Part shown: piece by piece, positions 30,515 to 58,331 of the stretch
How positions within the stretch are numbered: position 1 is the first letter of the stretch
Layout: each line of letters begins with the position of its first letter
Source of the DNA: an uncultured Spirochaetales bacterium
GTDB taxonomy: Bacteria; Spirochaetota; Spirochaetia; CAYLLE01
DNA length: 64,000 bases
NCBI GenBank assembly: GCA_964384485.1
Contig: CAYLLE010000001.1
Coordinates: 40,589-104,588 of the forward strand
Direction of reading: 5' to 3'
The notes under the pieces: generated by a model
Seen by the model: the letters and a program-made list of their open reading frames with translations, nothing else
What the model was told of the DNA's origin: nothing
Database searches by the model: none
Translations under genes and position numbers: made by a program

Positions 30515-30546
30515 CTTTCATCCTAATTCTTCAGTAGAATATTGAG

Positions 30547-30571
30547 GATGCGGGGAGGACCCCCGCATCCG
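30547..30571 (-). promoter_or_regulatory. intercistronic stem-loop between SBP and permease genes
   Basis: Perfect 11-bp inverted repeat GGATGCGGGGG / CCCCCGCATCC with a 3-nt loop. It is not followed by a T-tract on the transcribed strand. Confidence 0.3.
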
Positions 30572-30593
30572 TTAAACTCTGTGATACTTGAAA

Positions 30594-32357: not shown

Positions 32358-32447
32358 TGAAATACCTCCTTGGTAGTTTTCTGATGCATTATAAAGGCGC
32401 AAAAAGAACCCCCGCTATGTGCAACTTTTTACCTTTGTTACGATTGT

Positions 32448-34196: not shown

Positions 34197-34216
34197 GTGT
34201 AGAAAATTTGACTTTT

Positions 34217-34774
34217 TCAGTCAAGTATTTCCTTCACCATGTAGATAAGACCGGTACGTCCTCCCCGGGGAAGGGGCTCCCATTCCGGCAGTTTACCCAC
34301 TTCCCGGTATCCTATCTTCCGGTACAGTTCCACAGCCACCGTGTTTTCTTCCCACACGGTCAGTGACAGACGGGTGCTCCCTAGCTTCCGTGCTTCCTCT
34401 TCAAGAAGGTTCATAACTAGCCTGCCAAGTCCTAAACCCCGAGCCTTTCGGGAGAGCATAATTCCGATAGTGATCCACAATCCGGTATAATTTTTTGTCG
34501 CGTTTGCTTCGCCGACCAGTTGATCATCCAGAAAAATAAACAGTCTCCGTTCTTTTTCAGTCTCCAGCTTTTTTAAAATTTGACAGAGATGATCACAGCT
34601 TTTCGGAAGATCCATCTCCTGATGACTGCACATCACCTGTTCTTCATGCAGTTCATTCCGGAATCTCATGAAACTGTACAGGTCTTCCCATACCGGGTAC
34701 CGGATAACCACCAGCCGTTCCCTTATCGCCTTTTCTAAAATGATCTGTCCGGATAACACATTTTCCGATTTCAC
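34217..34774 (-). CDS. GNAT family N-acetyltransferase
   Basis: Acetyl-CoA binding motif (RKARGLGLGRLVMNLLEEEARKLG). Confidence 0.75.
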   Translation of the reverse strand: MKSENVLSGQIILEKAIRERLVVIRYPVWEDLYSFMRFRNELHEEQVMCSHQEMDLPKSCDHLCQILKKLETEKERRLFIFLDDQLVGEANATKNYTGLWITIGIMLSRKARGLGLGRLVMNLLEEEARKLGSTRLSLTVWEENTVAVELYRKIGYREVGKLPEWEPLPRGGRTGLIYMVKEILD

Positions 34775-34951
34775 TTTCGCCCCCTTATTTTTTCAAGTAG
34801 TACTCCAGGTTACCTTCCGCCGTCAAGGAAAATATTTACCGGGGAGACGGTTTGTAAAAGATAGTTACATGGGTAAAGAATAGAACCTTGTGAGCATATA
34901 GGGGAGAAAATAAACTGATTCAATATTTAACCCCGGAGGTTTACGGAATAT

Positions 34952-36494: not shown

Positions 36495-38510
36495 ATGAAA
36501 GAACAGCTTAAGAAAATAATGCGGTACGCCGCTCCGTATCATTATCCCGACGCTCTGAGCCAGCTCGACCGGCTCATCGGTATGGGTGCGGGTATTATAC
36601 ATGTAAACTTTCATCAGTCGGCCATGGAACTTTTTGAGTGGCGGGGCTTACATACTCATCATCCTCCCCACCCATTCAATCTGCATGATAAAGGTCCGGC
36701 CATGGACAATATGATGAGGGATTTCACCTCCATCTGCAAAGAGAATGGGATCATTCCCATGGTCTATATCTGTTTCCACACCTTCGCGATCCGTCTTTTG
36801 AATGATCATCCGGAAGCATGGGACTGGCTGGCAACGGATGAAATGGGAACTCCCCTGCTTCAGGCTCTCTACGTAAGGAACAGACAGCGCCGATACCAGG
36901 GATGCCCGAACAATCCGGGATGGATAGACCATCTTAAAGCAATGAGCTCACAGGCCGTAAACCTTGGGTTTAAAGGGATATTTTTTGACAACCCGAACTG
37001 GGTTTGGTGCTACTGCCCCCATTGTCAGGAAGCATTCGGCACATACCTCAAGGGTAAGGGGTTTGATCCCGAGCCTGTCCCGAAGACTCCTGACTGGAAG
37101 TCTGAAACATGGCAGCAGTATATGCGGTTTTTGGGCTCGGTTATCAAAGAAAAGATGACGGAGCTTAACCGGTTTCTTAAGCAGCAGGATCCGGAATTCA
37201 TTATTACCATGAATTCGCTGCCGCCTACGGAACGTTCACCGTCGGTACAGGCCGTCCTAAGCTATTACGTGAATGAAGCGGCGGATTATACCTTCTACGA
37301 AATCGGAGCCGGCAGACCTTCCGGTCAGCTTGGAAACGGGAAATACTGGAAAGGAATTGATTACCGGAGTTACGGGGTTGCTGAAGGAGAACTCTACGGA
37401 AAACTGCTTACCATTCTGGTGCACCGGAAATACCGGGATCCCGAGGAGGATACCCGTCCGAAGACAGTACCCTCAGTTCCCTATGGAAACTACGACAAGT
37501 TTGATCTCAACAGAAGCAGGCTGGGATTAGCGGAAGGATGGGCGTTCCGTTCTTCCGAAGTTCTTGAAGATATCCATTCCATACGGAATTTCGAACGGCC
37601 TATGGAACTGCGTTCTTATTATGATTTTGCTCAGGAGCACGCTGACCTGTATATTGATTCAAAGATGAAAGCTTCTGTGGGCGTCTACTTTTCCATGGAA
37701 AATCTGATGCGGAATCTAGCGGTAGAACATACCAATGATGATCCGGATCTGGCATTCTTCCTTGGAAAAAAAGAGGGGAAATGGCCCCATCCCGGTTATC
37801 TTAAATGGATCAATATCCTGGCGGACTCCCATCTTCCCTTTAAAACGATTCTTGATCTTGAAACATGCGATGTCGACGTACTAATAATCCCGGACACAAA
37901 GCATATCACTCCCGAAGAATCGGCGGCGTTGGAAAAGAAGATAAAAGAAGGCCTAAAGATATTGGCTACCGGAGAAACATCGCTGTACGAGGGCAGTAAA
38001 CGTCTCGGCGGATACCAGCTTTCCCGGGTGTACGGGACCGAAGAACCGGTCAATACACGGATCCGAAACGATTACGGAAAAGGGGCAGCGGTACTCCTTC
38101 CGGATGCTCCGGAAATGAAGTATTATATTCCCCAAACGGAAGATAAAGATGGTGTGACCGACGCTGGCCAGAACAGCTGTATCCGGGAAGTTTTGATTTC
38201 CGAGCTTCGGTCACTTTACGGAAAGAAACAGTTCCCCGTGGAAGGGCGTATGCCTCAGTCCCTGCTGCTGACAGCACTTGAGTACCGGGGTAAAACTTGC
38301 ATCAATATGGTAAACTACGGGGTATCTATCCGGAATGACCAGGTAATCCCGGCGGGAGAAGCATCCATCCTTTTGGATACCCAGCCGGAAAAAGCAGAAA
38401 TTTACTCACCGGACCGGAAGAAACCCGAAATAGAATTGATAAAAACCGGAGTTACGGCAGAGATCAGGGTATCCCGGACCGGGATTTATAATTTAATCGT
38501 TTTGTCATGA
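36495..38510 (+). CDS. GH42-like glycoside hydrolase homologue (TIM barrel with Cys4 metal site plus beta-gal trimerisation-like domain)
   Basis: C-x38-CxCxxC (QGCPNN...WVWCYCPHCQ) resembles the Zn site of Thermus GH42 beta-galactosidase. The middle domain DVLIIPDTKHITPEESAALEKKIKEGLKILATGE is flavodoxin-like. No DxHxxG B12 motif is present. Confidence 0.5.
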   Translation: MKEQLKKIMRYAAPYHYPDALSQLDRLIGMGAGIIHVNFHQSAMELFEWRGLHTHHPPHPFNLHDKGPAMDNMMRDFTSICKENGIIPMVYICFHTFAIRLLNDHPEAWDWLATDEMGTPLLQALYVRNRQRRYQGCPNNPGWIDHLKAMSSQAVNLGFKGIFFDNPNWVWCYCPHCQEAFGTYLKGKGFDPEPVPKTPDWKSETWQQYMRFLGSVIKEKMTELNRFLKQQDPEFIITMNSLPPTERSPSVQAVLSYYVNEAADYTFYEIGAGRPSGQLGNGKYWKGIDYRSYGVAEGELYGKLLTILVHRKYRDPEEDTRPKTVPSVPYGNYDKFDLNRSRLGLAEGWAFRSSEVLEDIHSIRNFERPMELRSYYDFAQEHADLYIDSKMKASVGVYFSMENLMRNLAVEHTNDDPDLAFFLGKKEGKWPHPGYLKWINILADSHLPFKTILDLETCDVDVLIIPDTKHITPEESAALEKKIKEGLKILATGETSLYEGSKRLGGYQLSRVYGTEEPVNTRIRNDYGKGAAVLLPDAPEMKYYIPQTEDKDGVTDAGQNSCIREVLISELRSLYGKKQFPVEGRMPQSLLLTALEYRGKTCINMVNYGVSIRNDQVIPAGEASILLDTQPEKAEIYSPDRKKPEIELIKTGVTAEIRVSRTGIYNLIVLS

Positions 38511-41500
38511 GCACAGAAAGCACCAGATGGTCGGAAGATAAGGCTCCCCGTAGTTTAAGTGATCTTAAATCCCGGTTTACCGAATCACCGGGAAGATACC
38601 GGCCGGTTCCCTGGCTCGGATACTCGGGCAGTCTTACCGAAGAAGAAGTACTCGCGTCGATAGAAGAGATGCACCGGCAGTCTATATACTCTTTTTTCAT
38701 CTTCCCCGTATACGGAATGGAGATTGAGTACCTTTCCCCGGAATGGTTCTCCCTTGTAAGAAAATCGGTCCGACGGGCAGCTTCCCTGGGGATGGAAGTC
38801 TGGATTTACGACGATTACAACTGGCCCAGCGGAACCTGCGGCGGCAAATTGATTTTAGAGCATCCGGAGTACAGCATCCGCCGGATAGAAGCTTTTATAT
38901 CAGATTATATCCCTCCAGGTGAAGAACTCAGGTTCCCCGGACAGGACCCATTCATTAAAACGGTCGCGGTTACAGAATCAGGCCGGTCGCTGCCTGCCAC
39001 TCTGTCCAAAGATGAAGAAAGCGGTTATTCCTGGAAGAATGACACAGCAGAACCGGCCAGGATAACACACCTGTATATACAGGAGCCGGCCCCGCTCAAA
39101 TACAATCTCTGTCTTTTTAAAGGCAGCCTCTGGCAGAAAGAATATGATTTGGGTACCCATTACTTAGAGTTCCTAAATCCCGACGCGGTTGAAGAATTCA
39201 TCACCATGACCTACCGGCGGTACCGCAGTGAGCTGAAGGATTTGTGGAGCTCAATTGCGGGTTTTATGACCGACGAACCGAGCCTTCGCGAATCAATCCA
39301 TTATTATCCCCCGTTCTTAAAAACATTTGAAAAGACCTACGGATACAACCTGGAAGACCGGCTTGAACACCTCTTTCTCCCCGGTTCGGAAAATGCATTC
39401 CAGGTCCGGGCCGATTACTGGAGACTTGCCGGAAAAATATTTGCTGAAAATCTGGGTCGTATAAACCGGTGGTGCCGGAAGCACGGGGTAGATTTTACCG
39501 GTCATTTCCTGGGAGAAGAGAGTCCGGGGGCCGAAGTCTGGCATCAGGGGTCAGCGGCTGTCCGGAAGGAAATGTCGATCCCCGGCATGGACGTTCTCTA
39601 CGATACTCCGTGTGATCCCACCCCGTCCAACACCTATTCAACATTCGTCCATCATTACGACAACCTGGCCCTTACCGGAAAACTTGTCTCCGCGGCCTCG
39701 GAAACAGCCGGGAGCCGGAGAGCTTTTGCCGAAGCATTCGGCGGCTTTCCCTACTGGGGCGGTCCGGCCGATTTGACCGCCCAAACCCATTGGACTACGG
39801 CGCAGGGAATAAATTTTATAAACGACAATTCCCTTTCCGTTTCCTGGAAAAGTTTCCGGAAGCGCACACTCTGGGGGAAGCATTTTACAATGCCCTGGTG
39901 GGAATGCTACAGCAATTTCGTAAAAACAGCAGGCCGGTGCTGCCTGCTCGAATCAGTGGGAAGACCGATTAGACCTATCGGCCTGGTGTATCCTGAGCTG
40001 ACCGCTCAAGCCCTTACCTTCCGTAACTGGCACCGCGGCAGCTCCGGTGTTACCGGAACCCTTCTGCAGTCGAATAAGCTTGTTCAGGAGACTGCTTCAG
40101 CATTGTCTCTCAACCATCGGGACTGGGGTATCCTGTGGGAAAACGGTTTATCCGAATCTTCCGGTGACCGTGAAAACTGCAGGATCCTGATCATCCCGGG
40201 GGCTTACTGCCTCTCCCGGAAAATACTTGAAGACCTCATGGTTCAGCAGCGGAAGGGCATCTGTTTAATCTTTGTCGGTTCAGCACCGGAATATTTTATC
40301 GACGGAGATAATGACCTGTGCCGGGACATCCTCGACAGGCTCATGCAGTGCCCGAACGTGTACCGGATAAATCCCCGGGAAGCTGACCGGTATATCATAG
40401 AACGCGCGATAGAGCCGATTATTGATGGTCAACTTGACCGAAGCTTCTCCATTTCCGGCCCGGGGAAACATCTTATTACAGCGTCCGCAAGGATGTGGGA
40501 AGATACCGGGATTATCCATCTTGTGAATATGAGCCCGCGGACAACCCGCGTCTCCTGTTTCGTTACCACGAAAGATCCTGTGTCTTTGTGGCATCCCGAT
40601 GACGGTAAAACATATTCGGTCTCCGGAGTAGATCTTGAGCAGGGACAGAAGTTTTCACTCGAATTCGCCCCCTGGGAGGGATACTTTCTCGTCTCGAGTC
40701 GGGAAGCCGTGGTGACGGACCACCCGTTGCCGCCCCGGGACGCGGCGCAGGGACTGGAAGGATTCACCCTGCGGCACACGGCTTTTCCGGAACCGCTTCC
40801 GGATTTTTTATCCTTGGACAATAAATGGGACATCACCCCCGAATCAGTGAACACCCTGGCGCCGGATATGTACTTCCATGAAATGACAGCGGAATCCGGA
40901 CCGCCGTCCGAATCCGCCGGATGGCTTCGCGCAGATGACGAGAAACTCCCCTTTCCGTTAAACCCTTCCGAGTCCGAATACTACTGGCACCGGTGTGATT
41001 TTTTTGCCGAATATCTCCCGGACGACATAGCTGCCGTGGTAGACAGTGATCTCTATGAAGCCGCTTTTATCAACGGAAATCCGCTGCCTGACCCATCTCC
41101 CGTCACACTGTGGGACCGGGGAAATCTTTCCTTCAGACTCGGCGGGTACATAAAACCGGGAGACAACAGCCTGACATTCAAAGTAAAGACTGACCCTCAC
41201 TATGATCCGAAGGTAGTTCTCAAGTCTTTTGAACCGTTCCGTCTTGAACCCGTTATCGTCTCCGGATCCTTCGGTGTAGCAATTAAAGATAAGGGTAAAG
41301 TGATCGGACCTAAACCCGACCGGCTGTTCACCGGCGACTGGGGTCTGCAGGGCTTTTATAATTATTCCGGAGTGATAGTATACCGGCATACTTTTACCGC
41401 TCTGCCCCAGGGCAGCCAGGTGTGGCTTGACCTGGGATCGGTTGGTGTATGCGCTCATCTTAAAGTAAACGGCCGGGAAGCAGGAAGACGCTGCTGGCCG

Positions 41501-41674
41501 CCGTATATGTTCCGGATCGATCCCTACCTGGAAGAAGGAAAAAACACCTTGCTTATACGGGTAATGAACACCTTCGGGAACCTTTTCGAGAAAGGTGTTT
41601 GGGGATTCGACCATAAAACGGGTATGGCTCCGTCGGGTATTCTCGGACCGGTTAAGCTGATCGGCCTTCCCTGA
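38507..41674 (+). CDS. Large multidomain glycoside hydrolase (1055 aa). Its N-terminus is alpha-L-rhamnosidase-like (GH106-type). It has two C-terminal galactose-binding-like beta-sandwich domains.
   Basis: N-terminal motif RYRPVPWLGYSG..EEEVLASIEEMHRQSIYSFFIF. The C-terminal domains resemble the GH2 N-terminal sugar-binding domain (YRHTFTALPQGSQVWLDLGSVGVCAHLKVNGREAG). ATGA overlap with the upstream gene. The family assignment is tentative. Confidence 0.5.
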   Translation: MSTESTRWSEDKAPRSLSDLKSRFTESPGRYRPVPWLGYSGSLTEEEVLASIEEMHRQSIYSFFIFPVYGMEIEYLSPEWFSLVRKSVRRAASLGMEVWIYDDYNWPSGTCGGKLILEHPEYSIRRIEAFISDYIPPGEELRFPGQDPFIKTVAVTESGRSLPATLSKDEESGYSWKNDTAEPARITHLYIQEPAPLKYNLCLFKGSLWQKEYDLGTHYLEFLNPDAVEEFITMTYRRYRSELKDLWSSIAGFMTDEPSLRESIHYYPPFLKTFEKTYGYNLEDRLEHLFLPGSENAFQVRADYWRLAGKIFAENLGRINRWCRKHGVDFTGHFLGEESPGAEVWHQGSAAVRKEMSIPGMDVLYDTPCDPTPSNTYSTFVHHYDNLALTGKLVSAASETAGSRRAFAEAFGGFPYWGGPADLTAQTHWTTAQGINFINDNSLSVSWKSFRKRTLWGKHFTMPWWECYSNFVKTAGRCCLLESVGRPIRPIGLVYPELTAQALTFRNWHRGSSGVTGTLLQSNKLVQETASALSLNHRDWGILWENGLSESSGDRENCRILIIPGAYCLSRKILEDLMVQQRKGICLIFVGSAPEYFIDGDNDLCRDILDRLMQCPNVYRINPREADRYIIERAIEPIIDGQLDRSFSISGPGKHLITASARMWEDTGIIHLVNMSPRTTRVSCFVTTKDPVSLWHPDDGKTYSVSGVDLEQGQKFSLEFAPWEGYFLVSSREAVVTDHPLPPRDAAQGLEGFTLRHTAFPEPLPDFLSLDNKWDITPESVNTLAPDMYFHEMTAESGPPSESAGWLRADDEKLPFPLNPSESEYYWHRCDFFAEYLPDDIAAVVDSDLYEAAFINGNPLPDPSPVTLWDRGNLSFRLGGYIKPGDNSLTFKVKTDPHYDPKVVLKSFEPFRLEPVIVSGSFGVAIKDKGKVIGPKPDRLFTGDWGLQGFYNYSGVIVYRHTFTALPQGSQVWLDLGSVGVCAHLKVNGREAGRRCWPPYMFRIDPYLEEGKNTLLIRVMNTFGNLFEKGVWGFDHKTGMAPSGILGPVKLIGLP

Positions 41675-42668
41675 ACGTTTCAATCATGGCGATAACGTTT
41701 TCCGGCGGAACATCCTGCGGTACCGAGTGGGTGGGTCCGCCGATGTATCCTCCGCCGGCGCCGAGAATGTTCATCGTCTCTCTGGTCACCTGACGCACTT
41801 CATCAACCGACGCGTAGGGCAGGAACTGCTGGGTACTGATTCCTCCCCAAAATGTAAGTTTACTTCCATACCGGTTTTTCACTTGTTCAAGATCGTAAAT
41901 CTCAGGCTGCAGGGTTTGATACACATCCAGTCCAATCTCAATCAGATCGTCAAATATTTCCGATACATCGCCGCAGGAATGCTGAAAAACATATAACCCT
42001 TTACTCCGTACTCTTCCGTAGAGGTCAGCCATCCGGGGCTTGATGAATTTTCTCCAGTGTTTAGGACCCATTAGCAAGCCGCGCTGCTGTCCCCAATCAT
42101 CACCAAACATAAAACCGTCCAAATCGTATTGAAGGGCCACATCCAGTATTTTATGATTAAAGGCAAGAATTCCATCCAAAAGTTCCTCGACGAAACCGGG
42201 ATTCAGTATCATATCGGCAAGGAGATTTTCCATTCCCCGAAGCGTCCATGCCCGTTCAAACATTGAGAATCCGATATTTCCTAATTTAAAAACATCTTCA
42301 TCTAATTCAATCAATTCACCGAACCTTTTATGGAGATTATCCGTTTCAAGCCGGGGGAATGAATAGCCGTTCATTTCAGGTGCAGGAAGCTGTATGTTGT
42401 CAACGATGCCGGTATCCTTATCCGCGCCGCTCTTGTTCCAGACCACTCCGAAGGCATCACGAAAAAATCCGGGCTTATCGGGAAGTTCTGTTATCCCGCC
42501 TTTAAAATAAGCGCTCTTGATATGATTACCAATTTTCGCATCAAAATCAGGATCCTTCAGGTAGTCCGCGATCCTCGCGCGCTCGTGGATGGTAAATCCT
42601 ACTGAATACGGAACTCTGTCGGGCTCTTCGTGTTCAATGGCAGCAATTATACGTTCCCTTCTTGTCAT
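41652..42668 (-). CDS. uroporphyrinogen decarboxylase (URO-D) family protein (MtaA/CmuA-like methyltransferase fold)
   Basis: The N-terminus (MTRRERIIAAIEHEEPDRVPYSVGF) and C-terminus (GGISTQQFLPYASVDEVRQVTRETMNILGAGGGYI) are typical of URO-D/MtaA. It is the last gene of a minus-strand operon. Confidence 0.7.
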   Translation of the reverse strand: MTRRERIIAAIEHEEPDRVPYSVGFTIHERARIADYLKDPDFDAKIGNHIKSAYFKGGITELPDKPGFFRDAFGVVWNKSGADKDTGIVDNIQLPAPEMNGYSFPRLETDNLHKRFGELIELDEDVFKLGNIGFSMFERAWTLRGMENLLADMILNPGFVEELLDGILAFNHKILDVALQYDLDGFMFGDDWGQQRGLLMGPKHWRKFIKPRMADLYGRVRSKGLYVFQHSCGDVSEIFDDLIEIGLDVYQTLQPEIYDLEQVKNRYGSKLTFWGGISTQQFLPYASVDEVRQVTRETMNILGAGGGYIGGPTHSVPQDVPPENVIAMIETFREGRSA

Positions 42669-42685
42669 AAAAAACTCCTTATAAG

Positions 42686-43774
42686 TCAGAACTGGTTTAA
42701 GAATTCACCGGCGATTTCCGCTTTTTGCACAAATGATGCCGTGAGAGCCCATTCTTCATCAGAATGAAACCGGCCGCCTACCGGACCTAAACCGTCCAAC
42801 ACCGGAACCAGATCGGCTACATAACTGCTGTCGGACGCTCCGCCCCGGGAAATCGGGAATACCCGCACCCCTTTTCGTTCAGCGCATTTGCCGTATTTCC
42901 GGAACAGGGCCTCTGTTCCGGAATTCGGAGAAAAAGCAGGAAAAGCGGGTCCCGGCGTTAATACGAACTTGCATCGGGTGCCGGAGCCGTTTACCAATTC
43001 CTCCGCCTTCCTTACCGCGGATTCGAGCACATCAAGCTCAAAGGCCCGGATCTCAAACTCGGCTTCGGCATAATCCGGAACCTGGTTGTAGGCCGAACCT
43101 CCCCGGACTATTCCGACATTAACCGTGCATTCCCTGCCGTAATCGGTCATGGATTCAAGCTTCTCTACCATACCGCACAACCCCCGGACGGCACTGACCC
43201 CCGAGGCGTGATCATTTCCCGCGTGCGCTGCTTTTCCGCAGGATTCCAGCTTGAATCTTCTAAGACCCTTCCGGGCTGTAACAGCGTATAAACCCTCATC
43301 CGCTGGCGGAACAGGTTCGAAATTGAGACAGTATTCCGCCTTAAGGTTACGTCGAATGTAATTGCGGAATGCCTGAGTGGGGATTTCTTCCCGGCCGTTC
43401 ACCACAATCCGGAGGTTTCTTTTCTTCGTTCTGTCGAGAGTTTGCAGGAGTACGGTCAGACCGCCCTTCATATCCGCGACTCCGGCTCCATAGATCCTGT
43501 CAGGCTGACTGCCGATTCGGAACGGGACTTCCTGCGGACCAAGGACGGTGTCGGCATGACCCAGCAGAAGTACCTGACCGTCGGAAGATCCCCGGACCGC
43601 GTCCAGAACGGGAAATGAAACATCTCCCTCTTTGAGTTCTTGAATCCTCACGGTGAAGTCCCGTTCCTCTAAACAGGGTGTAAGTAATGCCATCACATCG
43701 CGTATACCTTCTTTACGAGAGCTTCTGCTGTCTATCCTGCAGAGGTCGGAGAGCATGGAAAGAAAATCATCCAT
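42686..43774 (-). CDS. M20 family metallopeptidase / N-acyl-amino-acid deacylase-like (ArgE/DapE/CPG2 fold)
   Basis: Metal-binding motifs (LLGHADTV, GAGVADMKGG). Confidence 0.8.
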   Translation of the reverse strand: MDDFLSMLSDLCRIDSRSSRKEGIRDVMALLTPCLEERDFTVRIQELKEGDVSFPVLDAVRGSSDGQVLLLGHADTVLGPQEVPFRIGSQPDRIYGAGVADMKGGLTVLLQTLDRTKKRNLRIVVNGREEIPTQAFRNYIRRNLKAEYCLNFEPVPPADEGLYAVTARKGLRRFKLESCGKAAHAGNDHASGVSAVRGLCGMVEKLESMTDYGRECTVNVGIVRGGSAYNQVPDYAEAEFEIRAFELDVLESAVRKAEELVNGSGTRCKFVLTPGPAFPAFSPNSGTEALFRKYGKCAERKGVRVFPISRGGASDSSYVADLVPVLDGLGPVGGRFHSDEEWALTASFVQKAEIAGEFLNQF

Positions 43775-45063
43775 TAGAGTGTTTTTTCAACCTCCCTGAT
43801 CTGCCTGGCCAGCTCCTCGGTTATACGAGCTGCTTCATCTTCCCGGAGGAGTAACGGCGGCTGGATCCTGAGGACATTGCCGAACGGACCGCCTGCTCCA
43901 ATTAAAATACCCCGTTCCCGGCATCCCGCGCGGATCTGCTTTGCGAACTCAGGTGCCGGCGTTTTGGCCGAATCTTTTACCAGTTCGATACCGATCATGA
44001 GCCCTCTGCCCCTTACTTCACCGGTCACGACCGTTTCCTCTTCCAGCGGCTTCAGCGAGTTCATTATCTGCGAGCCCCTTTCCAGAGCATTTCCAGAGAG
44101 ATCATTCCGGGTAATAAATTCTATGTTACTGAGAGCGGCCGCGCAGCTCACCGGATTACCGCCGAACGTCGAAAGATGGCTCCCCGGAGTAAAAGCCTCA
44201 GCTATTTCCGGGCGTACGGTAAACGCGGATAGGGGAAATCCGTTCGCGATTCCTTTTGCCGTCGTCATTATATCAGGAACAATGCCGCTATATTGAATTC
44301 CGAACATTTTTCCGGTCCTGCCGAATCCGGTTTGAACTTCATCACATATAAACAGAATATCATGCTCTTCCAAAATTTCTTTTACGTATTCGAAAAATCC
44401 GTCCGGCGGGACAATAATGCCCCCCTCTCCCAAAATCGGTTCCGTTATCATGGCGGCAACATCACCGGCCGTTTGAAAACGTATCACATTCCGAAGATAT
44501 TCCGCGGACTGTTCCGCGCAGGCTCCGGGAGACTCGGTACCGAAGGGACAGCGGTACGTGTAGGGCGCGGGGGTAAAGGCAATACCGGAAGCGTAAGGAC
44601 CTCCGTCTGTTTTCCTGCTGCTGTTTCCGGTAATAGACAAAGTCATGTTGGTCCTGCCGTGGAAACTGTGGGTCAACGCGATAAACTCGTGCCTGCCGGT
44701 ATACTGTCTCGCGATCCGCAAAGCGCCTTCGATTGCTTCGGCGCCGCTGTTTCCGAAAAATGATTTCCGGAGTGTGCCGGGAGTAATTTGGGAAAGCTTC
44801 TCTGCCAGGTTAGCTGCAGGGGAGTTGTAGTACACATAGGTGCAGCAGTGAACCCACCGTTCCATCTGTTCTATGGCGGCATCAAGTATTTCCCGATTTC
44901 CATGCCCGGCATTTGTAACAGCGATGCCGCTGAAACAATCCAAATATTCTTTTCCGCTCCTGTCGGTCACGGTACAATCCTTCGCCGACATAAACTCCAC
45001 ATCTTCGAATCCAGAAACCATAGAGGTGATCATGTATTCCTGATAAAGATCCTTCGTATTCAT
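43774..45063 (-). CDS. class III PLP-dependent aminotransferase (omega-aminotransferase family)
   Basis: FICDEVQTGFGRTGKMFG and TTAKGIANGFPLSA (Lys) motifs. The start was trimmed to the ATG at 45063, which is preceded by GGAG. Confidence 0.85.
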   Translation of the reverse strand: MNTKDLYQEYMITSMVSGFEDVEFMSAKDCTVTDRSGKEYLDCFSGIAVTNAGHGNREILDAAIEQMERWVHCCTYVYYNSPAANLAEKLSQITPGTLRKSFFGNSGAEAIEGALRIARQYTGRHEFIALTHSFHGRTNMTLSITGNSSRKTDGGPYASGIAFTPAPYTYRCPFGTESPGACAEQSAEYLRNVIRFQTAGDVAAMITEPILGEGGIIVPPDGFFEYVKEILEEHDILFICDEVQTGFGRTGKMFGIQYSGIVPDIMTTAKGIANGFPLSAFTVRPEIAEAFTPGSHLSTFGGNPVSCAAALSNIEFITRNDLSGNALERGSQIMNSLKPLEEETVVTGEVRGRGLMIGIELVKDSAKTPAPEFAKQIRAGCRERGILIGAGGPFGNVLRIQPPLLLREDEAARITEELARQIREVEKTL

Positions 45064-45073
45064 TTTCACTCCG

Positions 45074-46102
45074 TTACGAAAGGTAAACAGGGTTTCCCGT
45101 TTCCACCGACTCGTTAATTCCGCAGATAATCCTTGTAACTTCAAGACCGTCCCTGGCCCCGGTCATGGGCACCTGATCGGAAACAATACAGTCGACAAAA
45201 TGACGGATACTCTCCACCGCGAACCCCATTGGTTTTCCGTAGATGTTCGGTCTAACCAGAACATCCGGATACTTTGAATCTTCGGCGGTGTATTTCTGCA
45301 TGGCTCTGTGATGGCTTCCATCCAGATAAATCACTCCCTCTGTTCCGACAACTTCGCACTTAAAGTCTATCAGACTTGGCGATGATTTAGGAAGGATCCA
45401 GCAGTTTTCCACCATCCCGACTCCGCCGTCTTGAAATTCCAAAATCATCTCGTAAAAATCGGGAGTCGTTATACCCATGCCCGTAAGTACTTTCGACCTG
45501 GCCACCCCGTACACCTTTTTAACCTTATCAGCAAACAGCCACCGGACCAAGTCTACCGAATGACTTCCGATGAACCAGGCCACGGAGGACCGGCCGGCCC
45601 ACTTAAGCCACTCTGTGGGGACGGTGATTTCATCATTCAGCCGTAAATAAATATATGAGGGGCTCCCGAGCTGCCCCTTCAAAATCGATTCTTTTGTCTT
45701 GTAAAAAATCGGATTCCACCGGTTGTGGAAATCAACCATAAACTTAACCCCTGCCGCTTCCGCGGCGTCCGCGATCTTCTCGCATTCTTCCACAGTGGTT
45801 GCCAGGGGTTTCTCTATAAGTACATCTTTGCCCGCTTCTATCGCGGCCAGTGCAATTTCGGTATGGCTGAAATCGGGAGTTACTATCGAAACAGCACTGA
45901 CGGAATCGTCCTGCAGAAGCTCCCGGTAATCGGAGTATCCGCTGTTCACGCCGTATTTTGACATGGCCTGATTCAGCCTTTCTCCATCGGTGTCGCATAA
46001 CGCTGCCAGATTAACCCGTTCATCGTAGTCATACGTCTGGGCGTGCATATCACCCCAGCCGCCTACCCCGATAATTCCAATTCCTATTTCCCGGTTTTTC
46101 AT
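45074..46102 (-). CDS. Gfo/Idh/MocA family NAD(P)-dependent oxidoreductase
   Basis: N-terminal Rossmann motif (IGIGIIGVGGWGDMHAQTY) and C-terminal GFO_IDH_MocA_C region. Confidence 0.85.
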   Translation of the reverse strand: MKNREIGIGIIGVGGWGDMHAQTYDYDERVNLAALCDTDGERLNQAMSKYGVNSGYSDYRELLQDDSVSAVSIVTPDFSHTEIALAAIEAGKDVLIEKPLATTVEECEKIADAAEAAGVKFMVDFHNRWNPIFYKTKESILKGQLGSPSYIYLRLNDEITVPTEWLKWAGRSSVAWFIGSHSVDLVRWLFADKVKKVYGVARSKVLTGMGITTPDFYEMILEFQDGGVGMVENCWILPKSSPSLIDFKCEVVGTEGVIYLDGSHHRAMQKYTAEDSKYPDVLVRPNIYGKPMGFAVESIRHFVDCIVSDQVPMTGARDGLEVTRIICGINESVETGNPVYLS

Positions 46103-46114
46103 CTTTTGCTCCTC

Positions 46115-46894
46115 TTAAATACCTTTGTAACCGCCGGCGACAACAATTTCTTCCCCGGTAATGGCGTCGGAGGCCGGAGAAAGAAGAAAAAGCGCGGCAC
46201 CAACCACATCATCCACCGTCAGAATCCGTTTTTGCGGAGTTTGCTCGATTATGTTCTGCCGTAATTCTTCTATTGTCAGACCGCCGCTTTCGGCGATCAT
46301 GGGCCAATGGGATTCGGCGATTGAAGTTTCCGTGGGACCGGGACACAGGGAGTTCACGCAGATTCCCTTGTCGGCAACCTCTTTTGCCAAAGACTGGGTA
46401 AAGCCGATAACCCCGAACTTGGAGGCACAATATGGACTTATCCTGGCTACTCCTGCCTTTCCGGCGGTGGAAGCGACATTCAGGATTTTCCCGCTCCTGT
46501 TTTTAATCATCTCCGGAAGCACCGCTTTACACATAAGGAATACCCCGGTTAAGTTCACCGAAAGAGTTTTGTTCCATTCTTCAAGAGAGGTTGTTTGAAC
46601 GGGATCAGCCGGCCCGCCGATTCCGGCATTGTTGACTAATACATCAATTCCGCCGAACGCGGAAATGGCTTCATTTACCGCCCCCGCCGCGTCTTCTTCC
46701 CGGGAGACATCCCCTGTATAGATAAACCCTTTACCGCCGGCGTCGTTTATGCGTTTGACCGTGTCTTTCAGCTGATCCGCCGAACGGGACATCACCGCGA
46801 CCGCTGCTCCCCGCTCAGCCAGTGCCACGGCCAATCCGCGTCCAATTCCCCGGCCGCCTCCGGTTATCAATACCCGCATATCCTTAAAGTCCAT
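46115..46894 (-). CDS. SDR family short-chain dehydrogenase/reductase
   Basis: TGGGRGIGRGLAVALAERGAAV cofactor motif, YCASKFGVIGFT catalytic YxxxK, and NNAG. Confidence 0.9.
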   Translation of the reverse strand: MDFKDMRVLITGGGRGIGRGLAVALAERGAAVAVMSRSADQLKDTVKRINDAGGKGFIYTGDVSREEDAAGAVNEAISAFGGIDVLVNNAGIGGPADPVQTTSLEEWNKTLSVNLTGVFLMCKAVLPEMIKNRSGKILNVASTAGKAGVARISPYCASKFGVIGFTQSLAKEVADKGICVNSLCPGPTETSIAESHWPMIAESGGLTIEELRQNIIEQTPQKRILTVDDVVGAALFLLSPASDAITGEEIVVAGGYKGI

Positions 46895-46916
46895 TTGATC
46901 TGTTCTCCTTCATTTG

Positions 46917-47918
46917 TTACCGCAAAACATGTTCGGTAAGCAGCTCTAGCGTTCCCACAATATCCTGTTGACTCATTTTTTCTCTTATTCCTGTTTCATC
47001 CAGGGTTCCGGCGATTTCATAGAGTTTATGAATCATACTGACGGTACGGCTTAAGGCCGCGTATCCGTCCTCCCGATAGGGGTATATATCGATACCGTAC
47101 CAGCCGTCGAACTTGATCCGCCGGAGCCACCAGAAGAGTTCGATCATCTCCCATAAATTGACACTGCCGATAATCATATCATGATCCCAATCCCGGTAGT
47201 TATCGTTTAGATGGAGATGAAACAGTCTTCCCTGCCGGGCCGCGAGAACCGCGGACTCCGCCGGACTCTCTTGCGCCATCAGGGAGTGACCCACATCGAG
47301 GGTGATTCCCACATGGGGCTTTCCCGCCAGCTCGCAGAGAAGAAGGGCTTTACCCACATCGGATATGTGGCATTTGTTCCTGGGTTCCTTCGGCTTGTAT
47401 TCAACTACGATTTTTACGCGGGGATTGTATTCAGAAATTTCACTAATCCCTTCCACCAGGTGATTCCAGGCGGCTTCATAGTCCGATTGGAAGGGATAAT
47501 CAAATCCGTCCTGACCGAGCCAAAGCTGCACATCCGCGGCTCCGGCTGCTTCGGCTGCGTCTATTCCCCGCTTCACCAGTACTAATGCTTCTTTCCTGAC
47601 GGCATAATCGGTCGACGAAAGAGAACCGTATTTCCATTTTGGGTCGGAGAAGACATCAATTTCCACCATCCCGAGAGCCAGTCCGTGACTATCTAGGAGT
47701 TTTTTTAATCTAACAGGATCATTGAACTGACTGGGAAAATCCACAGCCAGACCTGTAATACCGCTTACCCGGGACAGTTTCTCTACCTGTTCGGTAAAAC
47801 TGATATTTTCCCGGTAACCGTCTTTAACGAACCGGTCGGCACAATTGGAAAATGATGTGGTTGCCGCGTCTATCCGCAGCTTTTCCGGATATTTTTCCAT
47901 GATTACCTCGACTGCCAT
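46917..47918 (-). CDS. sugar phosphate isomerase/epimerase (xylose-isomerase-like TIM barrel, AP_endonuc_2 family)
   Basis: TIM-barrel metal-ligand pattern (VEYKPKEP, ITLDVGHSL, LHLNDNYRDWDHDMIIG). Confidence 0.7.
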   Translation of the reverse strand: MAVEVIMEKYPEKLRIDAATTSFSNCADRFVKDGYRENISFTEQVEKLSRVSGITGLAVDFPSQFNDPVRLKKLLDSHGLALGMVEIDVFSDPKWKYGSLSSTDYAVRKEALVLVKRGIDAAEAAGAADVQLWLGQDGFDYPFQSDYEAAWNHLVEGISEISEYNPRVKIVVEYKPKEPRNKCHISDVGKALLLCELAGKPHVGITLDVGHSLMAQESPAESAVLAARQGRLFHLHLNDNYRDWDHDMIIGSVNLWEMIELFWWLRRIKFDGWYGIDIYPYREDGYAALSRTVSMIHKLYEIAGTLDETGIREKMSQQDIVGTLELLTEHVLR

Positions 47919-47988
47919 TTTAGACAGGAGCGACTTGGACAGGCAACGTTCTATTTTTTACTTTTGTGCCACCCCTTTACCGGCAGGT

Positions 47989-49703: not shown

Positions 49704-50930
49704 TTACCGGACGGAATGACGGTAAACGTCCGGACCGAAATATTCCGGTATGTCATCCCCCCTGGTAACCGTAAAATCTTTTAGGTTAAGCCCTTCGATG
49801 TATTCAGCGTGAAGACCCGCGGTCTGATGCGTCACCACCTCCTGACCCGCGCCCGGTCGGCGGTCATAACAGCCGCCGGGATATTCCGTTCTCTTCTCTA
49901 AATGAAGACGCACATCTTTGATATTGATATCTTTAAGATGATTATCCGGCATACCCGCTAAATAGAAGCCGTTTTCGGCATTACAGTTAATGTTCATGAA
50001 AGTGATGTTCCTGATTTTACCGGTCCTGCCGCCCTCTTTCCGGGGAAACGCGGTGACATATACCGGTTCCGCCCTGCCCCACCAGCCGGGATATTTCAGC
50101 TCCGTGGTAACGATCATGTCGGAAAACATGATGTTCTCCATGGACCCTTGATCCCGAAGCTGAAGACCTATCCCCCTGTTACTCCCGGTAATAATACAGC
50201 CATGAACGGCCACATTCCGGATGTCATCGGTACTTTCGCTTCCCAGCTTAAACGCGCAGGAACTCGACCGCATAACGCAGCCTGTCACCGTTATGTTTTC
50301 CGATGGGCCCGCACCCGGTTCATGTCCGGTTGTTTTAATACAGATACAGTCATCTCCCGATTCAATATAGCAGTCACTTATCCGTACAAAGGATGAGTTA
50401 TCAATATCGATACCGTCTGTATTCGGAGCTTTGAGGCTGTTCAGAACCGTTACCCCGCTTATAACAACATCGGAGCATCCCGCGGCGGTCAACGCCCAAA
50501 AAGCGGAATTCCGTACGGAGATATCATGTAACCTGATATTACGGCATCGCCTGAATGCCAGGAGCTTCGGACGGGACCGGACAGCCCGGTACAGGTGGGG
50601 ATGTCCCGTATCCATGTAGCGCAAACCGTTTCCGTCGATGCTGCCTGTGCCGCTGATCCGGATATTTGATGCGTCGGCTGCTTCAATAACGCTGTCAAAC
50701 ACTCCCCCGCCCGCGGCAGGATTAGCCGCTATCCTGCTGCCGCCGGCTAATTCTACCTTAGTGTTGCTGTATATAATCAGTTTATCAATCAGGAATGTCC
50801 TGTCCGCAGGAAAAAACAGGGTGCCTCCCCCGATTTCCCTGCAGGCATCCGCTGCATTTTGACAGGCGGCGGTATCATTTACCTCGCCGTTTCCGGCGGC
50901 GCCGAATTCGGTTACATCAAATAAAGTCAT
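49704..50930 (-). CDS. GH28-like glycoside hydrolase / pectate-lyase-superfamily beta-helix protein (polygalacturonase/rhamnogalacturonase-like)
   Basis: The N-terminus matches FDVTEFGAAGNGEVNDTAACQNAADAC. GH28-type motifs include NTDGIDID, SGDDCICIK and HGCIITGS. The RIK-like motif is divergent (SNRGIGLQ). Confidence 0.6.
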   Translation of the reverse strand: MTLFDVTEFGAAGNGEVNDTAACQNAADACREIGGGTLFFPADRTFLIDKLIIYSNTKVELAGGSRIAANPAAGGGVFDSVIEAADASNIRISGTGSIDGNGLRYMDTGHPHLYRAVRSRPKLLAFRRCRNIRLHDISVRNSAFWALTAAGCSDVVISGVTVLNSLKAPNTDGIDIDNSSFVRISDCYIESGDDCICIKTTGHEPGAGPSENITVTGCVMRSSSCAFKLGSESTDDIRNVAVHGCIITGSNRGIGLQLRDQGSMENIMFSDMIVTTELKYPGWWGRAEPVYVTAFPRKEGGRTGKIRNITFMNINCNAENGFYLAGMPDNHLKDINIKDVRLHLEKRTEYPGGCYDRRPGAGQEVVTHQTAGLHAEYIEGLNLKDFTVTRGDDIPEYFGPDVYRHSVR

Positions 50931-50938
50931 GGAGAACC

Positions 50939-52285
50939 TTAATCCCGTAGTGCTGATCGCGGATCCAACAGTTCCGCGTCTTCCGGGGGAGCACCGAAGT
51001 CGGGGATCTTCATCAGTTCGCCTTCTTTTTTTGAGGAATCATGGGCTACGATGCCGGGGGCGTTATACCTGGCAGCAGCCCACACATGGTTAGGCGGCAG
51101 TTTCCCGGTGCGGAGCGATTCGAGAAAATCTACAACTAAAAACTGATGAGATCCGCAGTGTTTGTTCGGAAGTCCCACGAACTCCTTGGGCAGCCGATCG
51201 ACAGGATGGGCGGAGCAGACGCCTAGATGTTTCTTCCCGATATACTCTCTCGGCAGGTTTCCCAGATTCTGCTCATTTATTTCGACCCCGAAAAAATAAG
51301 AGTGCAGATCTGACACATCTTCATACCGGGGTTTTATGTATTTCTTCCGGTAGTCGAAACGGCCGCCCGCAGGATTTTCTTCAGTTTTATCCAGATGCAC
51401 CCACACGGCGGAATTCACCGTTACATTCCGGTAACCGCCGTTTTCGGCAGCTTCATACGCGGGGGCCCATTCGTAGGGGGCGGGCTGCTCCTCGTATGCT
51501 CCGTCTGTTCCGATAATAGACATCCGGGATTCCCCCGCGGCGGCTCTCCTGAACTCGTTTATCCTGGCTGTGCCCCCGTCGGCGGTCCGGAACAGCCCGG
51601 TCTGATTGCTGAACATATTATTCCAGCGGCTTAATTCCTCCCGGAAAATACCGTCCGGGTGATTATCTTTAAAACCAAAACAGGATACTTCGGTCATCCT
51701 GCTGAAGGTAACCGAAAGGATATGGGCAACCGAGTGTGTCGGATACAGCATCGGAGGGAAGCTGGCGCAGCTCTTCCAGTCGTCCTCATTACTTCCGTAA
51801 AATGGAGCATAGAACCGGTACATATCATGATAGTACTGACCTTCTCCGTACACAAACCGGCCGAAGTCTCCATCAGCGTACCTTTTCCGGCAGTAGATGG
51901 TCTGGGGCCGGTAGTAACTGGTTTCTCCGAGCATGTATAAAAGCCCCGTTTCTTTGACGGTATCCAGGAGCTCCTGGAGCTCTTCTAGAGTCACTGCCGC
52001 GGGCACGGCTGAATACACGTGCTTTCCGGCTCTTAACGCCTTCACCGCTTGAGGACAGTGTTTCCACCGCTGGGTGAATATTCCCACCGCATCCACATCG
52101 GTCTTGAGGAGCTGATCAAAATCTTCCACCGTATTCTCTATCCCGAATTCAGCTGAAGCTTTCTGCAGACGCTCCTTATCGAGGTCGGTTATAACAACAT
52201 TATCCACAAAGGGATGGGCCTGGAACAGCTGGAGGAACTGTTTTCCAAACCCGCCTAGACCGCACAGGCCGAATTTAATTCCCAT
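50939..52285 (-). CDS. Gfo/Idh/MocA family oxidoreductase, long form (448 aa)
   Basis: N-terminal Rossmann motif (FGLCGLGGFGKQFLQLF). It has a C-terminal extension relative to canonical ~340-aa members and no signal peptide. Confidence 0.7.
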   Translation of the reverse strand: MGIKFGLCGLGGFGKQFLQLFQAHPFVDNVVITDLDKERLQKASAEFGIENTVEDFDQLLKTDVDAVGIFTQRWKHCPQAVKALRAGKHVYSAVPAAVTLEELQELLDTVKETGLLYMLGETSYYRPQTIYCRKRYADGDFGRFVYGEGQYYHDMYRFYAPFYGSNEDDWKSCASFPPMLYPTHSVAHILSVTFSRMTEVSCFGFKDNHPDGIFREELSRWNNMFSNQTGLFRTADGGTARINEFRRAAAGESRMSIIGTDGAYEEQPAPYEWAPAYEAAENGGYRNVTVNSAVWVHLDKTEENPAGGRFDYRKKYIKPRYEDVSDLHSYFFGVEINEQNLGNLPREYIGKKHLGVCSAHPVDRLPKEFVGLPNKHCGSHQFLVVDFLESLRTGKLPPNHVWAAARYNAPGIVAHDSSKKEGELMKIPDFGAPPEDAELLDPRSALRD

Positions 52286-53120
52286 AATCTACTCCCGGAT
52301 GTAAAAATCTCATCAGATTCCGGCTGTAGATATTACTCCGGAATTCTTCACTTATCCTCAGTTCATCGTATATACGGTTGTCACGGTCCATTATCTCCCG
52401 TGTATAATGGGGCTTGTATTTATTGACCGAGTTGTCTGTTCCGAAAATGATATGCTCGGGCAGGTTATCTTCAAAAAGCGTTGTCAATTTAATGAGTACA
52501 TCTTTCCGGTATATTGGCGGAGTCCCGGGGGTCAAATCTATGTACATATTATATGAAGACTTAATCCCATTCCGCTCCCGGTATCTGGAAAGCCAGCGGG
52601 ATTTTCCATATACAGCAATGCATTCGTCACACCACGGCCAGGATACATGAGCCAGAGCGAATGTGATATCTTCGAGCTCACTCAGCGGTTCCCACCGGAT
52701 CGGTCTGCAGTAGTCTCCGGATACCGCCTTGTTGTAAAGAATACCGGAGTGGAACAGTATCGGTTTTCCCGCTTCACCGATCCGCCGGTATAGTTTTAGA
52801 GCCCTGGGGTCGTCCGGATAGAAGGAGTAACAGATAATTTTAAAACCCTTTATACCCGCGTCAAGGGCATATTCAACCTGGTTTCCGGCATCCTTCTCGG
52901 TTGGGTCGATGAAGAAAAAGGGATACAGGGTATTTTTAGCTGCCGTCAGTTCCAAAACCGATGAAATACGCTCTTTATAGTTCAAATCGGTGGGCATGTA
53001 GCCACTAGGGGGTATCGACATGATACAGCCGCCGTCAACCCCGGCTTCTTCCAAAGCACGGTAAAAAGAATCTCCATCGTAATCCATACTCCAAATATGC
53101 ATATGTCCGTCTAATATCAT
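52275..53120 (-). CDS. amidohydrolase-2 family metal-dependent hydrolase (TIM barrel; lactonase/decarboxylase-type)
   Basis: N-terminus ILDGHMHIW, with HSG and FGTD motifs. It overlaps the downstream Gfo/Idh/MocA start by 11 nt. Confidence 0.7.
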   Translation of the reverse strand: MILDGHMHIWSMDYDGDSFYRALEEAGVDGGCIMSIPPSGYMPTDLNYKERISSVLELTAAKNTLYPFFFIDPTEKDAGNQVEYALDAGIKGFKIICYSFYPDDPRALKLYRRIGEAGKPILFHSGILYNKAVSGDYCRPIRWEPLSELEDITFALAHVSWPWCDECIAVYGKSRWLSRYRERNGIKSSYNMYIDLTPGTPPIYRKDVLIKLTTLFEDNLPEHIIFGTDNSVNKYKPHYTREIMDRDNRIYDELRISEEFRSNIYSRNLMRFLHPGVDYGN

Positions 53121-53121
53121 C

Positions 53122-58202: not shown

Positions 58203-58296
58203 AAACAGTCATTGTACCGTCCGGATTCCGAGGATTCTATAGACATATTTTTACTTTGTTAGCCCGGTTTTACTTTATGGAACAGGGGAAGGGGAA

Positions 58297-58331
58297 ATAA
58301 AAAGGGCTTCCATTTTAAGGAAGCCTTTTTT
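58297..58331 (-). terminator. Rho-independent, bidirectionally structured terminator downstream of the small membrane protein gene.
   Basis: GGCTTCC-cattttaa-GGAAGCC hairpin flanked by A/T runs on both sides. Confidence 0.6.

Follow-up and report, generated by a model that had tools for sequence, protein, structure and literature searches.

The stretch of DNA considered here, 64,000 nucleotides from an uncultured Spirochaetales bacterium (assembly GCA_964384485.1, contig CAYLLE010000001.1; hereafter the window, with positions counted from its first letter), carries six consecutive genes on its minus strand. In the direction of transcription these encode a TIM-barrel isomerase (TIM), a short-chain dehydrogenase/reductase (SDR), a dehydrogenase of the Gfo/Idh/MocA family (Gfo), a class-III aminotransferase (AT), an M20 metallo-amidohydrolase (M20) and a protein of the URO-D superfamily (URO-D). 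An earlier account made from the letters of the DNA, referred to below as the sequence-only reading, had described the six as a cryptic catabolic operon. All six open reading frames (ORFs) were recovered intact at coordinates identical to those it gave, and a Pfam search on each ORF bore out all six of its family assignments. The genes are separated by 22, 12, 10, -1 and 17 nt, the start of the M20 gene overlapping the AT stop by 1 nt, and Shine-Dalgarno-like sequences lie 5' of the SDR, Gfo, AT and URO-D genes.

The same gene order is found in a sister lineage represented in two other metagenomes, where the response regulator (RR), TIM, SDR and Gfo genes lie on one contig (L180; L numbers denote the loci compared) and the AT, M20 and URO-D genes, together with a convergent gene for a 1054-aa protein, on another (L178). 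Proteins of the window and the sister lineage are 80-93% identical, and pairwise dN/dS is 0.04-0.13 for all six genes (0.040 for Gfo and 0.095 for SDR) at dS values of 0.9-1.5. Since the order is kept and the ratios are this low, all six genes are real and under strong purifying selection, and their arrangement is no chance run of ORFs. Two start codons deserve comment. The AT ORF can be extended mechanically to TTG 45144, while the gene calls in L001 and L178 use ATG 45063. The true start of TIM is probably ATG 47900 instead of ATG 47918, because a -10-like box overlaps the latter; GAGG lies 6 nt 5' of ATG 47900, and TIM homologs align only from about residue 12.

Beyond the sister lineage the set falls apart. 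Species-representative genomes were scanned with the TIM isomerase, which gave 80 loci, and the six genes were rejected as a conserved unit: M20 occurs in none of the 80, the AT and SDR genes found there belong to other subfamilies, the window-type Gfo appears weakly in three to four, and URO-D-like genes (25-34% identity) appear in about ten. The composition is thus conserved only at about the genus level, and it is a mosaic of accessory enzymes with no conserved new pathway. The sequence-only reading had matched the set to no standard named pathway, and the searches agree: none of the six proteins reaches an NCBIfam equivalog cutoff, SDR alone passing a broad subfamily model, and the literature searched (GH106 with aminotransferase, aminotransferase with sugar isomerase, URO-D with glycoside hydrolase, anaerobic O-demethylation) held no description of this enzyme combination.

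The surrounding glycan-utilisation locus

The six genes belong to a glycan-utilisation locus of about 30 kb, a point missed in the sequence-only reading (Table 1). They make up the second half of a block of 12 genes on one strand, running from 58202 to 41652, in which genes for GH2 and GH5-like glycoside hydrolases (GHs), an Amidohydro_2 protein, a 448-aa Gfo/Idh/MocA protein, a GH28 enzyme and the RR precede them. The biggest gaps in this block are the 56 nt before the RR gene and the 70 nt after it; within the stretch from GH28 to GH2 (49704-58202) gaps range from -11 to 8 nt. Signal peptides are absent from all the enzymes and the solute-binding protein (SBP) has a lipoprotein-type leader, so the predicted layout of the locus is one of oligosaccharide import followed by cytoplasmic degradation. 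Neither a kinase nor an aldolase is encoded in the 64-kb window, and the pathway would therefore be completed elsewhere in the genome.

The 1055-aa protein encoded convergently to the six genes is homologous over its full length to PF17132/GH106-annotated neighbours of TIM orthologs (L004, L007 and L009; E 6e-76 to 2e-123). Taken alone it matches the NCBIfam BT4145 rhamnosidase model at 1e-15, the rhamnoside jelly-roll model at 46.8 bits (cutoff 50) and PF17132 at E 0.0014. The first gene of its operon encodes an MttB-superfamily protein of 510 aa, which is uninterrupted and lacks an in-frame amber codon (no pyrrolysine); it is unusual for a glycoside-hydrolase operon to encode such a protein. 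Domain and profile searches assigned no significant family to the 671-aa protein (36495-38510) encoded between the two.

The closest known kind of locus is that of the YesM/YesN-controlled polysaccharide loci of Bacillota, such as the Bacillus subtilis yes rhamnogalacturonan locus. The window shares with yes-type loci a PF06580 kinase, a receiver-AraC response regulator, a large lipoprotein SBP, two permeases, and GHs without signal peptides, among them GH28 and rhamnosidase-like enzymes. It differs from them in that the kinase and RR genes are 14 kb apart, and in that the window encodes a GabT-type AT, a CPG2-like M20, an MtaA-like URO-D protein and an MttB-like protein, a complement not known from described loci of the yes type. 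The GH28, 448-aa Gfo/Idh/MocA and Amidohydro_2 genes (49704-53120, minus strand) are closely packed, their gaps being 8 nt and -11 nt. Sugar-lactone lactonases and isomerases are among the members of the Amidohydro_2 family, and the three genes could provide the locus with an oxidative branch for uronates.

Table 1. Positions of the six genes, the predicted regulatory features and the neighbouring genes in the window
Feature	Position	Strand	Basis or context
TIM-barrel isomerase (TIM)	46917-47918	-	Pfam PF01261 AP_endonuc_2, xylose-isomerase-like, 8.5e-24
SDR	46115-46894	-	Pfam adh_short, 1.8e-62
Gfo/Idh/MocA NAD(P) sugar dehydrogenase (Gfo)	45074-46102	-	Pfam GFO_IDH_MocA N- and C-terminal domains, 4.6e-31
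Class-III aminotransferase (AT), GabT/AcOAT-type	43774-45063	-	Pfam Aminotran_3, 1.8e-112
M20 metallo-amidohydrolase	42686-43774	-	Pfam Peptidase_M20 and M20_dimer, 5e-17
URO-D-superfamily protein, MtaA-like	41652-42668	-	Pfam URO-D, 8.2e-24
Conserved promoter/operator block (predicted)	47942-47983	-	In the 70-nt RR-TIM gap; contains GTAAAAAATAGAACGTTG and the -35
Element GTAAAAAATAGAACGTTG (= GTAAAnAATAGAACnTTG, GTAAAnAATAGAAC element)	47944-47961	-	Within the 42-nt block
Second element copy GTAAAGAATAGAACCTTG (GTAAAnAATAGAAC element)	34873-34890	+	Upstream of the MttB-like/671-aa/GH106-like operon
ACAAAGTAAAAA-like motif copies	32427-32438, 47955-47966, 58248-58259, 58267-58278	-	Upstream of SBP, TIM and GH2
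YesN-like response regulator, receiver and AraC helix-turn-helix	47989-49647	-	Pfam
GH28	49704-50930	-	Pfam
448-aa Gfo/Idh/MocA (second in locus)	50939-52285	-	Pfam
Amidohydro_2	52275-53120	-	Pfam
GH5-like	53122-55029	-	Pfam
GH2	55026-58202	-	Pfam
Two ABC permeases, 602-aa lipoprotein SBP, YesM-like histidine kinase, GNAT	28650-34774	-	Domain search
MttB-superfamily protein	34952-36484	+	PF06253, 7e-26; TIGR02369, 94 bits (cutoff 525)
671-aa protein	36495-38510	+	Co-oriented with the MttB-like and GH106-like genes
Distant GH106-like (alpha-L-rhamnosidase-like) 1055-aa enzyme	38507-41674	+	Convergent to the six genes

Predicted promoter and shared element

The gap between the RR and TIM genes contains a block of 42 nt of which 41 are identical to the sister lineage, while its flanks and the synonymous sites have diverged (dS ~1). 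The block ends in a -35-like TTGCCT (47946-47941), which is followed after an 18-nt spacer by a -10-like TAAAAT (47922-47917; TACAAT in the sister lineage) just outside the block. Within the block lies the GTAAAnAATAGAAC element, a second copy of which precedes the convergent operon and is likewise flush with a -35-like TTG. The pattern GTAAANAATAGAACNTTG, with 16 specified bases, has two exact matches in the 64 kb, at these two sites, but it was derived from the sites themselves and the exactness of the match is partly circular. The sister lineage carries the element too (L180 and L181). Where the element sits, which way it points and how well it is conserved favour a common activator site, for which the YesN-like regulator is the simplest candidate. 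With a footprinted promoter in the RR-TIM gap and an element shared with the convergent operon, the six genes probably form a transcription unit of their own that is co-regulated with that operon and the rest of the locus.

At the other end of the unit, the URO-D gene and the convergent GH106-like gene overlap by 23 nt at their 3' ends (41652-41674), which leaves no space for a terminator between them; in the sister lineage the two genes overlap in the same way (L178 3529-3551). Tight spacing, the footprinted promoter and the convergent gene overlapping the 3' end make it likely that, as the sequence-only reading had proposed, the six genes are transcribed as one unit downstream of the AraC-type response regulator.

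The shorter motif ACAAAGTAAAAA was tried as a half-site for the regulator and rejected: its 14 hits across the window, against 6.9 +/- 2.7 expected, are too weak to support a claim and serve as a lead only. Two ACAAAGTAAAAA-like copies lie 19 nt apart before GH2, where there is a promoter-like site (58262-58234) preceded by a terminator (58325-58305). This strong hairpin, resembling an intrinsic terminator (58305-58325), stands just 5' of the promoter-like site and follows an 82-aa ORF (58368-58616, minus strand) with two hydrophobic segments, a Lys/Glu-rich tail and a good ribosome-binding site.

Enzyme families and their relatives

TIM is the only one of the six proteins with a genomic context that recurs across phyla. 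Its closest solved relative is PDB entry 3KTC (7.7e-53), deposited as 'Xylose isomerase' and of the same length (333 aa), which we take to be a structural-genomics entry from Pectobacterium atrosepticum; a functional paper on 3KTC was not found in the literature searched, and the entry appears uncharacterised and gives no substrate. Actinomycete xylose isomerases (XIs) follow at about 4e-21 and the L-rhamnose isomerase (L-RhI) of P. stutzeri at 2e-13. The protein keeps E173, K175, H211, D245, D247 and D277, corresponding to XI E181, K183, H220, D255, D257 and D292, together with the catalytic E-x-K-P-x-E-P-R motif (E-x-K), and it has D208 in place of XI E217 and H236 in place of XI D245, all these positions being invariant in 14 homologs. 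The exchanges of E217 for D and D245 for H are presumably the L-RhI pattern. Scores against the named RhI and XylA models fall well below cutoff (TIGR02635, 101 vs 531 bits; TIGR02629, 49 vs 647; TIGR02631, 98 vs 447). By its residues TIM is predicted to be a di-metal aldose-ketose isomerase of the XI/L-RhI superfamily, in a family separate from the named equivalogs, and a 6-deoxyhexose or aldose isomerase is plausible.

The 80 isomerase loci span Armatimonadota, Bacillota, Spirochaetota, Chloroflexota, Atribacterota, Acidobacteriota, Planctomycetota, Omnitrophota and several archaeal phyla. When neighbours were clustered over 71 of these loci, the commonest was a rhamnulokinase-like FGGY kinase (30 of the 71), other common ones being SDRs, RuBisCO-like proteins, E1/E2 genes resembling those of pyruvate dehydrogenase (PDH), and GntR and DeoR regulators. 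A class-III enzyme dependent on pyridoxal phosphate (PLP), Amidohydro_2 and GH106-like proteins neighbour the isomerase in one clade only. In an unbootstrapped neighbor-joining tree the window TIM nests with L007, L009, L010 and L011, all of which have a GH106-like neighbour, and this adjoining of GH106-like enzymes across phyla points to a rhamnose-type deoxy sugar. Tblastn of the window with the FGGY kinase and the L004-type Amidohydro_2 gave nothing. Elsewhere in the family, clades from Chloroflexota (L045-L087) and Atribacterota (L048-L086) cluster with rhamnulokinase-like FGGY kinases, MtnW-like RuBisCO-like proteins and PDH-like E1/E2 genes, which suggests an uncharacterised deoxy-sugar route that would use a RuBisCO-like protein and thiamine-dependent cleavage.

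Phosphorylative L-rhamnose catabolism employs a RhaA or RhaI isomerase, the kinase RhaB and a RhaD or RhaEW aldolase, and the known rha regulons are not reported to include an aminotransferase (PMC3870299). The window resembles this route in having a di-metal isomerase of the XI superfamily and rhamnosidase-family enzymes, and a rhamnulokinase-like FGGY kinase is the commonest neighbour across the wider TIM family. It differs in that TIM is neither RhaA nor RhaI and in that the window lacks kinase, aldolase and mutarotase.

The two dehydrogenases are less distinctive. SDR scores 218 bits against the glucose 1-dehydrogenase subfamily model NF005559 (cutoff 215) and is a classical SDR, with TGxxxGxG and YxxxK motifs visible in the translation; a PDB search at E <= 1e-45 gave no match, the threshold being too strict. 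The best NCBIfam matches of Gfo, UDP-GlcNAc 3-dehydrogenase (168 bits) and IolG (164 bits), are both below cutoff, and its best PDB match, over the full length, is DgpA1 (5e-30). This nearest solved relative, the XI-like TIM barrel encoded two genes away and weak matches of Gfo to the BT_2158/BT_2159 glycoside 3-dehydrogenase models raise the idea of oxidative, non-hydrolytic glycoside cleavage, in which a DgpA-like 3-dehydrogenase would act with TIM as lyase or hydratase in the manner of C-glycoside deglycosylation or of Bacteroides 3-keto-glycoside pathways. That is very unlikely: the BT_2158/2159 matches reach 55-64 bits against cutoffs of 650-750, TIM finds its best alignments among true xylose and rhamnose isomerases and retains their catalytic Lys and metal ligands, and the commonest neighbour of its family is a ketose kinase.

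The sequence-only reading had also seen a partial resemblance to inositol or inosamine catabolism (rhizopine-type, MocA/MocC-like). At the family level there is such a likeness, possibly to a route for O-methylated compounds, in the Gfo/Idh/MocA protein, the TIM barrel, the aminotransferase and the possible methyltransferase, and Gfo does match IolG. This reading is largely refuted and now highly improbable, given that Gfo misses the IolG cutoff (TIGR04380, 355 bits), that TIM scores 19 bits against the 290 of IolE (TIGR04379) and is XI-like, that none of iolB, iolC, iolD, iolJ, mocB, mocD, mocE or mocF is among the annotated ORFs of the 64-kb window, and that the context is one of glycoside hydrolases.

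AT has its best PDB matches among GABA transaminases (2e-86), and an alignment with an E. coli GabT reference sequence places matching residues at I50, R141, E211, D239, Q242, K268, T297 and R398. It stays below the cutoffs of its best NCBIfam models, NF004426 (401 vs 552 bits) and the GABA-aminotransferase model TIGR00700 (333 vs 507). Because it has the full GabT signature, including the equivalents of R141, E211 and R398, its substrate should be an amine bearing a carboxylate or other anionic group. The class-III PLP enzyme of the isomerase loci is not this protein: its copies share 51-100% identity with the Cohnella query and only about 33% with the window AT. Where GabT has I50, R141, E211 and R398, all its copies have S50, S/T141, S (once A) at 211 and K398. 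This usual partner of the isomerase clade is not in the window, where AT has I, R, E and R.

The atypical PLP enzyme (L004 8642-9982, L007 10994-12325 and homologs in L009-L033, 14 loci being listed) is spread over at least seven phyla. It keeps the catalytic Lys, D239, Q242 and T297, with both carboxylate-binding Arg residues and the gate Glu replaced, and is perhaps something other than an ordinary transaminase. Genes for Amidohydro_2, SDR, a rhamnulokinase-like kinase and GH106-like enzymes accompany it, and a description of such a module was not found in the literature searched.

M20 has carboxypeptidase G2 (CPG2) as its closest PDB relative (7e-25). Metal and catalytic positions H73, D75, D101, E129, E130, E153 and H337 are invariant in an alignment of its clade, and presumably map to CPG2 H112, D141, E175, E176, E200 and H385. 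In the nearest clade (37-42% identity) one member, in L089, lies with sialidase-like BNR proteins and a NanA-like lyase, and another, in L091, beside PIG-L, GNAT, GH20 and GH106 genes. In L090 (10001-15440, from an 8.6-Mb genome) a clade member (37% identity) and a URO-D-family gene (34% identity) are 3 kb apart. Because members of its clade sit in glycan loci, M20 looks like a glycan-context amidase. A metagenome scan with back-translated patterns of the M20 clade returned only M20 proteins of at most 35% identity with almost no common neighbours, the patterns being too generic. The L090 locus is a second, independent co-occurrence of M20 and URO-D genes; the surroundings of its M20 gene include a ceramidase-Amidohydro_2 fusion, a NAT acetyltransferase and a CN-hydrolase.

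The pairing of AT with M20 bears on two further explanations. One, a specific form of the amino-sugar idea in the sequence-only reading, is that the substrate catabolised is a neutral amino-deoxy sugar with an N-acyl group, such as a 3- or 4-amino-3/4,6-dideoxyhexose of bacterial glycans. M20 would deacylate the sugar, AT would convert it to a keto-sugar, Gfo or SDR would reduce that to the 6-deoxyhexose and TIM would isomerise it. Such a route would lack none of its enzyme activities, the TIM clade goes with GH106-like enzymes and, in other loci, with a PLP enzyme, the best NCBIfam match of Gfo is a sugar 3-dehydrogenase, and the nearby GNAT is weakly PseH-like (1e-10). It is nevertheless rather unlikely. 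AT keeps the R141, E211 and R398 equivalents expected for carboxylate substrates, whereas the usual partner of the isomerase lacks them; M20 is CPG2-like and belongs to no known sugar N-deacetylase family; and the gene set is restricted to one genus. The earlier proposal of an amino group installed on or removed from a keto intermediate is therefore weakened: a class-III AT is present, but its GabT signature fits carboxylate-bearing amines and it is not the PLP enzyme that usually accompanies the isomerase.

Alternatively, the six genes could be a co-transcribed patchwork of functionally unrelated modules, with TIM, SDR and Gfo serving the glycan locus, AT and M20 acting on amino acids in the manner of ArgD/ArgE or DapC/DapE, and URO-D separately. 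The best NCBIfam families of AT are acetylornithine aminotransferase and GABA transaminase, M20 weakly matches ArgE/DapE models, and the best homologs of different genes come from different phyla (Armatimonadota/Bacillota, Clostridia, Victivallales). The same two families make up the ArgD/ArgE and DapC/DapE pairs, and the window AT and M20 genes are adjacent and translationally coupled, AT having the carboxylate-binding Arg. Such a patchwork is unlikely, since the sister lineage retains both the gene order and the close coupling, with strong selection on the genes, the ArgD, ArgE and DapE equivalog cutoffs are missed by wide margins, and M20, which is nearer CPG2, belongs to a clade that recurs in glycan loci with sialidase-like, GH106, PIG-L and GNAT genes and not in arginine or lysine operons.

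The URO-D protein has more than 7,000 relatives at E <= 1e-15; the best 120 are 54-84% identical and mostly from Clostridia, where relatives adjoin GH38 (with DHDPS and PfkB genes), GH5 or GH123. The profile of the family matches MtaA at 4e-11 and UroD at 4e-4, and the protein itself scores 47 against the NCBIfam methyltransferase model (cutoff 235). It shares its fold family with MtaA, MtbA and CmuA, and the H-x-C zinc motif of MtaA aligns with H230/C232, while the third Cys of MtaA aligns with an invariant His, H314, suggesting a putative His-Cys-His metal site. Unlike those enzymes, its relatives adjoin glycoside hydrolases, and no corrinoid partner was seen in the contexts sampled: none of the genes listed for L172-L177 and L090 has a corrinoid-binding domain. 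In the 64-kb window no corrinoid protein, activase, or B12-binding domain or motif was found, and neither a cobalamin riboswitch nor any other Rfam match. The earlier suggestion of a possible methyl transfer is weakened, the protein being MtaA-like but the window encoding no corrinoid partner for it. A corrinoid system composed of the MttB-like protein, a corrinoid protein and the MtaA-like protein was rejected, there being no B12 protein or motif in the window and MttB-like genes co-occurring with URO-D relatives in none of the loci compared. For carbohydrate demethylation, an aerobic P450 is the only route found in the literature searched (PMC6292453).

A proposed role in glycan catabolism

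The intactness of the genes, the purifying selection on them, their catalytic residues, the conserved promoter block, the setting in the locus and the genus-restricted mosaic were observed directly. With these in hand, the six genes are best read as the distal, separately promoted unit of the locus, encoding cytoplasmic enzymes that finish monomers and remove decorations from an imported, acidic, deoxyhexose-containing glycan. We give this reading a probability of roughly 0.55. We infer the substrates and the order of steps as follows. Imported oligosaccharides would be cut to monomers in the cytoplasm, where the GH106-like enzyme would release a 6-deoxyhexose of the rhamnose type and the XI/L-RhI-type isomerase would convert it to a ketose. 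SDR and Gfo may oxidise, reduce or epimerise non-standard sugars. The CPG2-like M20, translationally coupled with AT, would take off a group that is amide-linked or an N-acyl substituent, after which the carboxylate-bearing amine so released (an omega-amino acid, or possibly an amino-uronic acid) would be deaminated by the GabT-type AT. The MtaA-like URO-D protein is of a kind that commonly accompanies glycoside-hydrolase loci.

Several points weigh against this reading. Each biochemical step is assigned by family membership, and the promoter and operator are predictions from sequence. A GabT-type aminotransferase next to an M20 protein also fits the logic of arginine and lysine biosynthesis, and the pair might be unrelated to the glycan. 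The window AT and SDR are not orthologs of the companions of the isomerase elsewhere (about 33% and 30% identity), so that the link between isomerase and amine enzyme in the window could be coincidental. The GH106 kinship of the 1055-aa protein is distant (Pfam E 0.0014, with the jelly-roll score just below cutoff), and the six genes include no kinase, aldolase or lactonase partner.

A bolder proposal is that the six genes and the convergent MttB-like/671-aa/GH106-like operon constitute a previously undescribed anaerobic pathway that would strip decorations other than sugars from a deoxyhexose/uronate glycan. The MtaA-like URO-D protein would then serve as an oxygen-independent sugar O-demethylase or similar enzyme, and M20 with AT would serve to detach and recycle either an amide-linked amino acid or the nitrogen of an amino-uronate. 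We regard this as speculative and quite improbable.

Two-component-regulated glycan-utilisation loci are themselves a known kind, and what is new here is the unusual accessory set. If the proposal of monomer finishing and decoration removal is true, the locus shows how an anaerobic spirochaete handles deoxy sugars, N- or amide-linked groups and possibly methyl ethers after glycosidic cleavage. Three uncharacterised families meet in it: an XI/L-RhI-like isomerase family that spans bacterial and archaeal phyla, one clade of which is tied to GH106-like and atypical PLP enzymes; an MtaA-like URO-D family with thousands of members, which occurs in GH loci and whose corrinoid partner is absent from the contexts sampled; and a small CPG2-like M20 clade specific to glycan loci. 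A function for any of the three would improve the annotation of many genomes.

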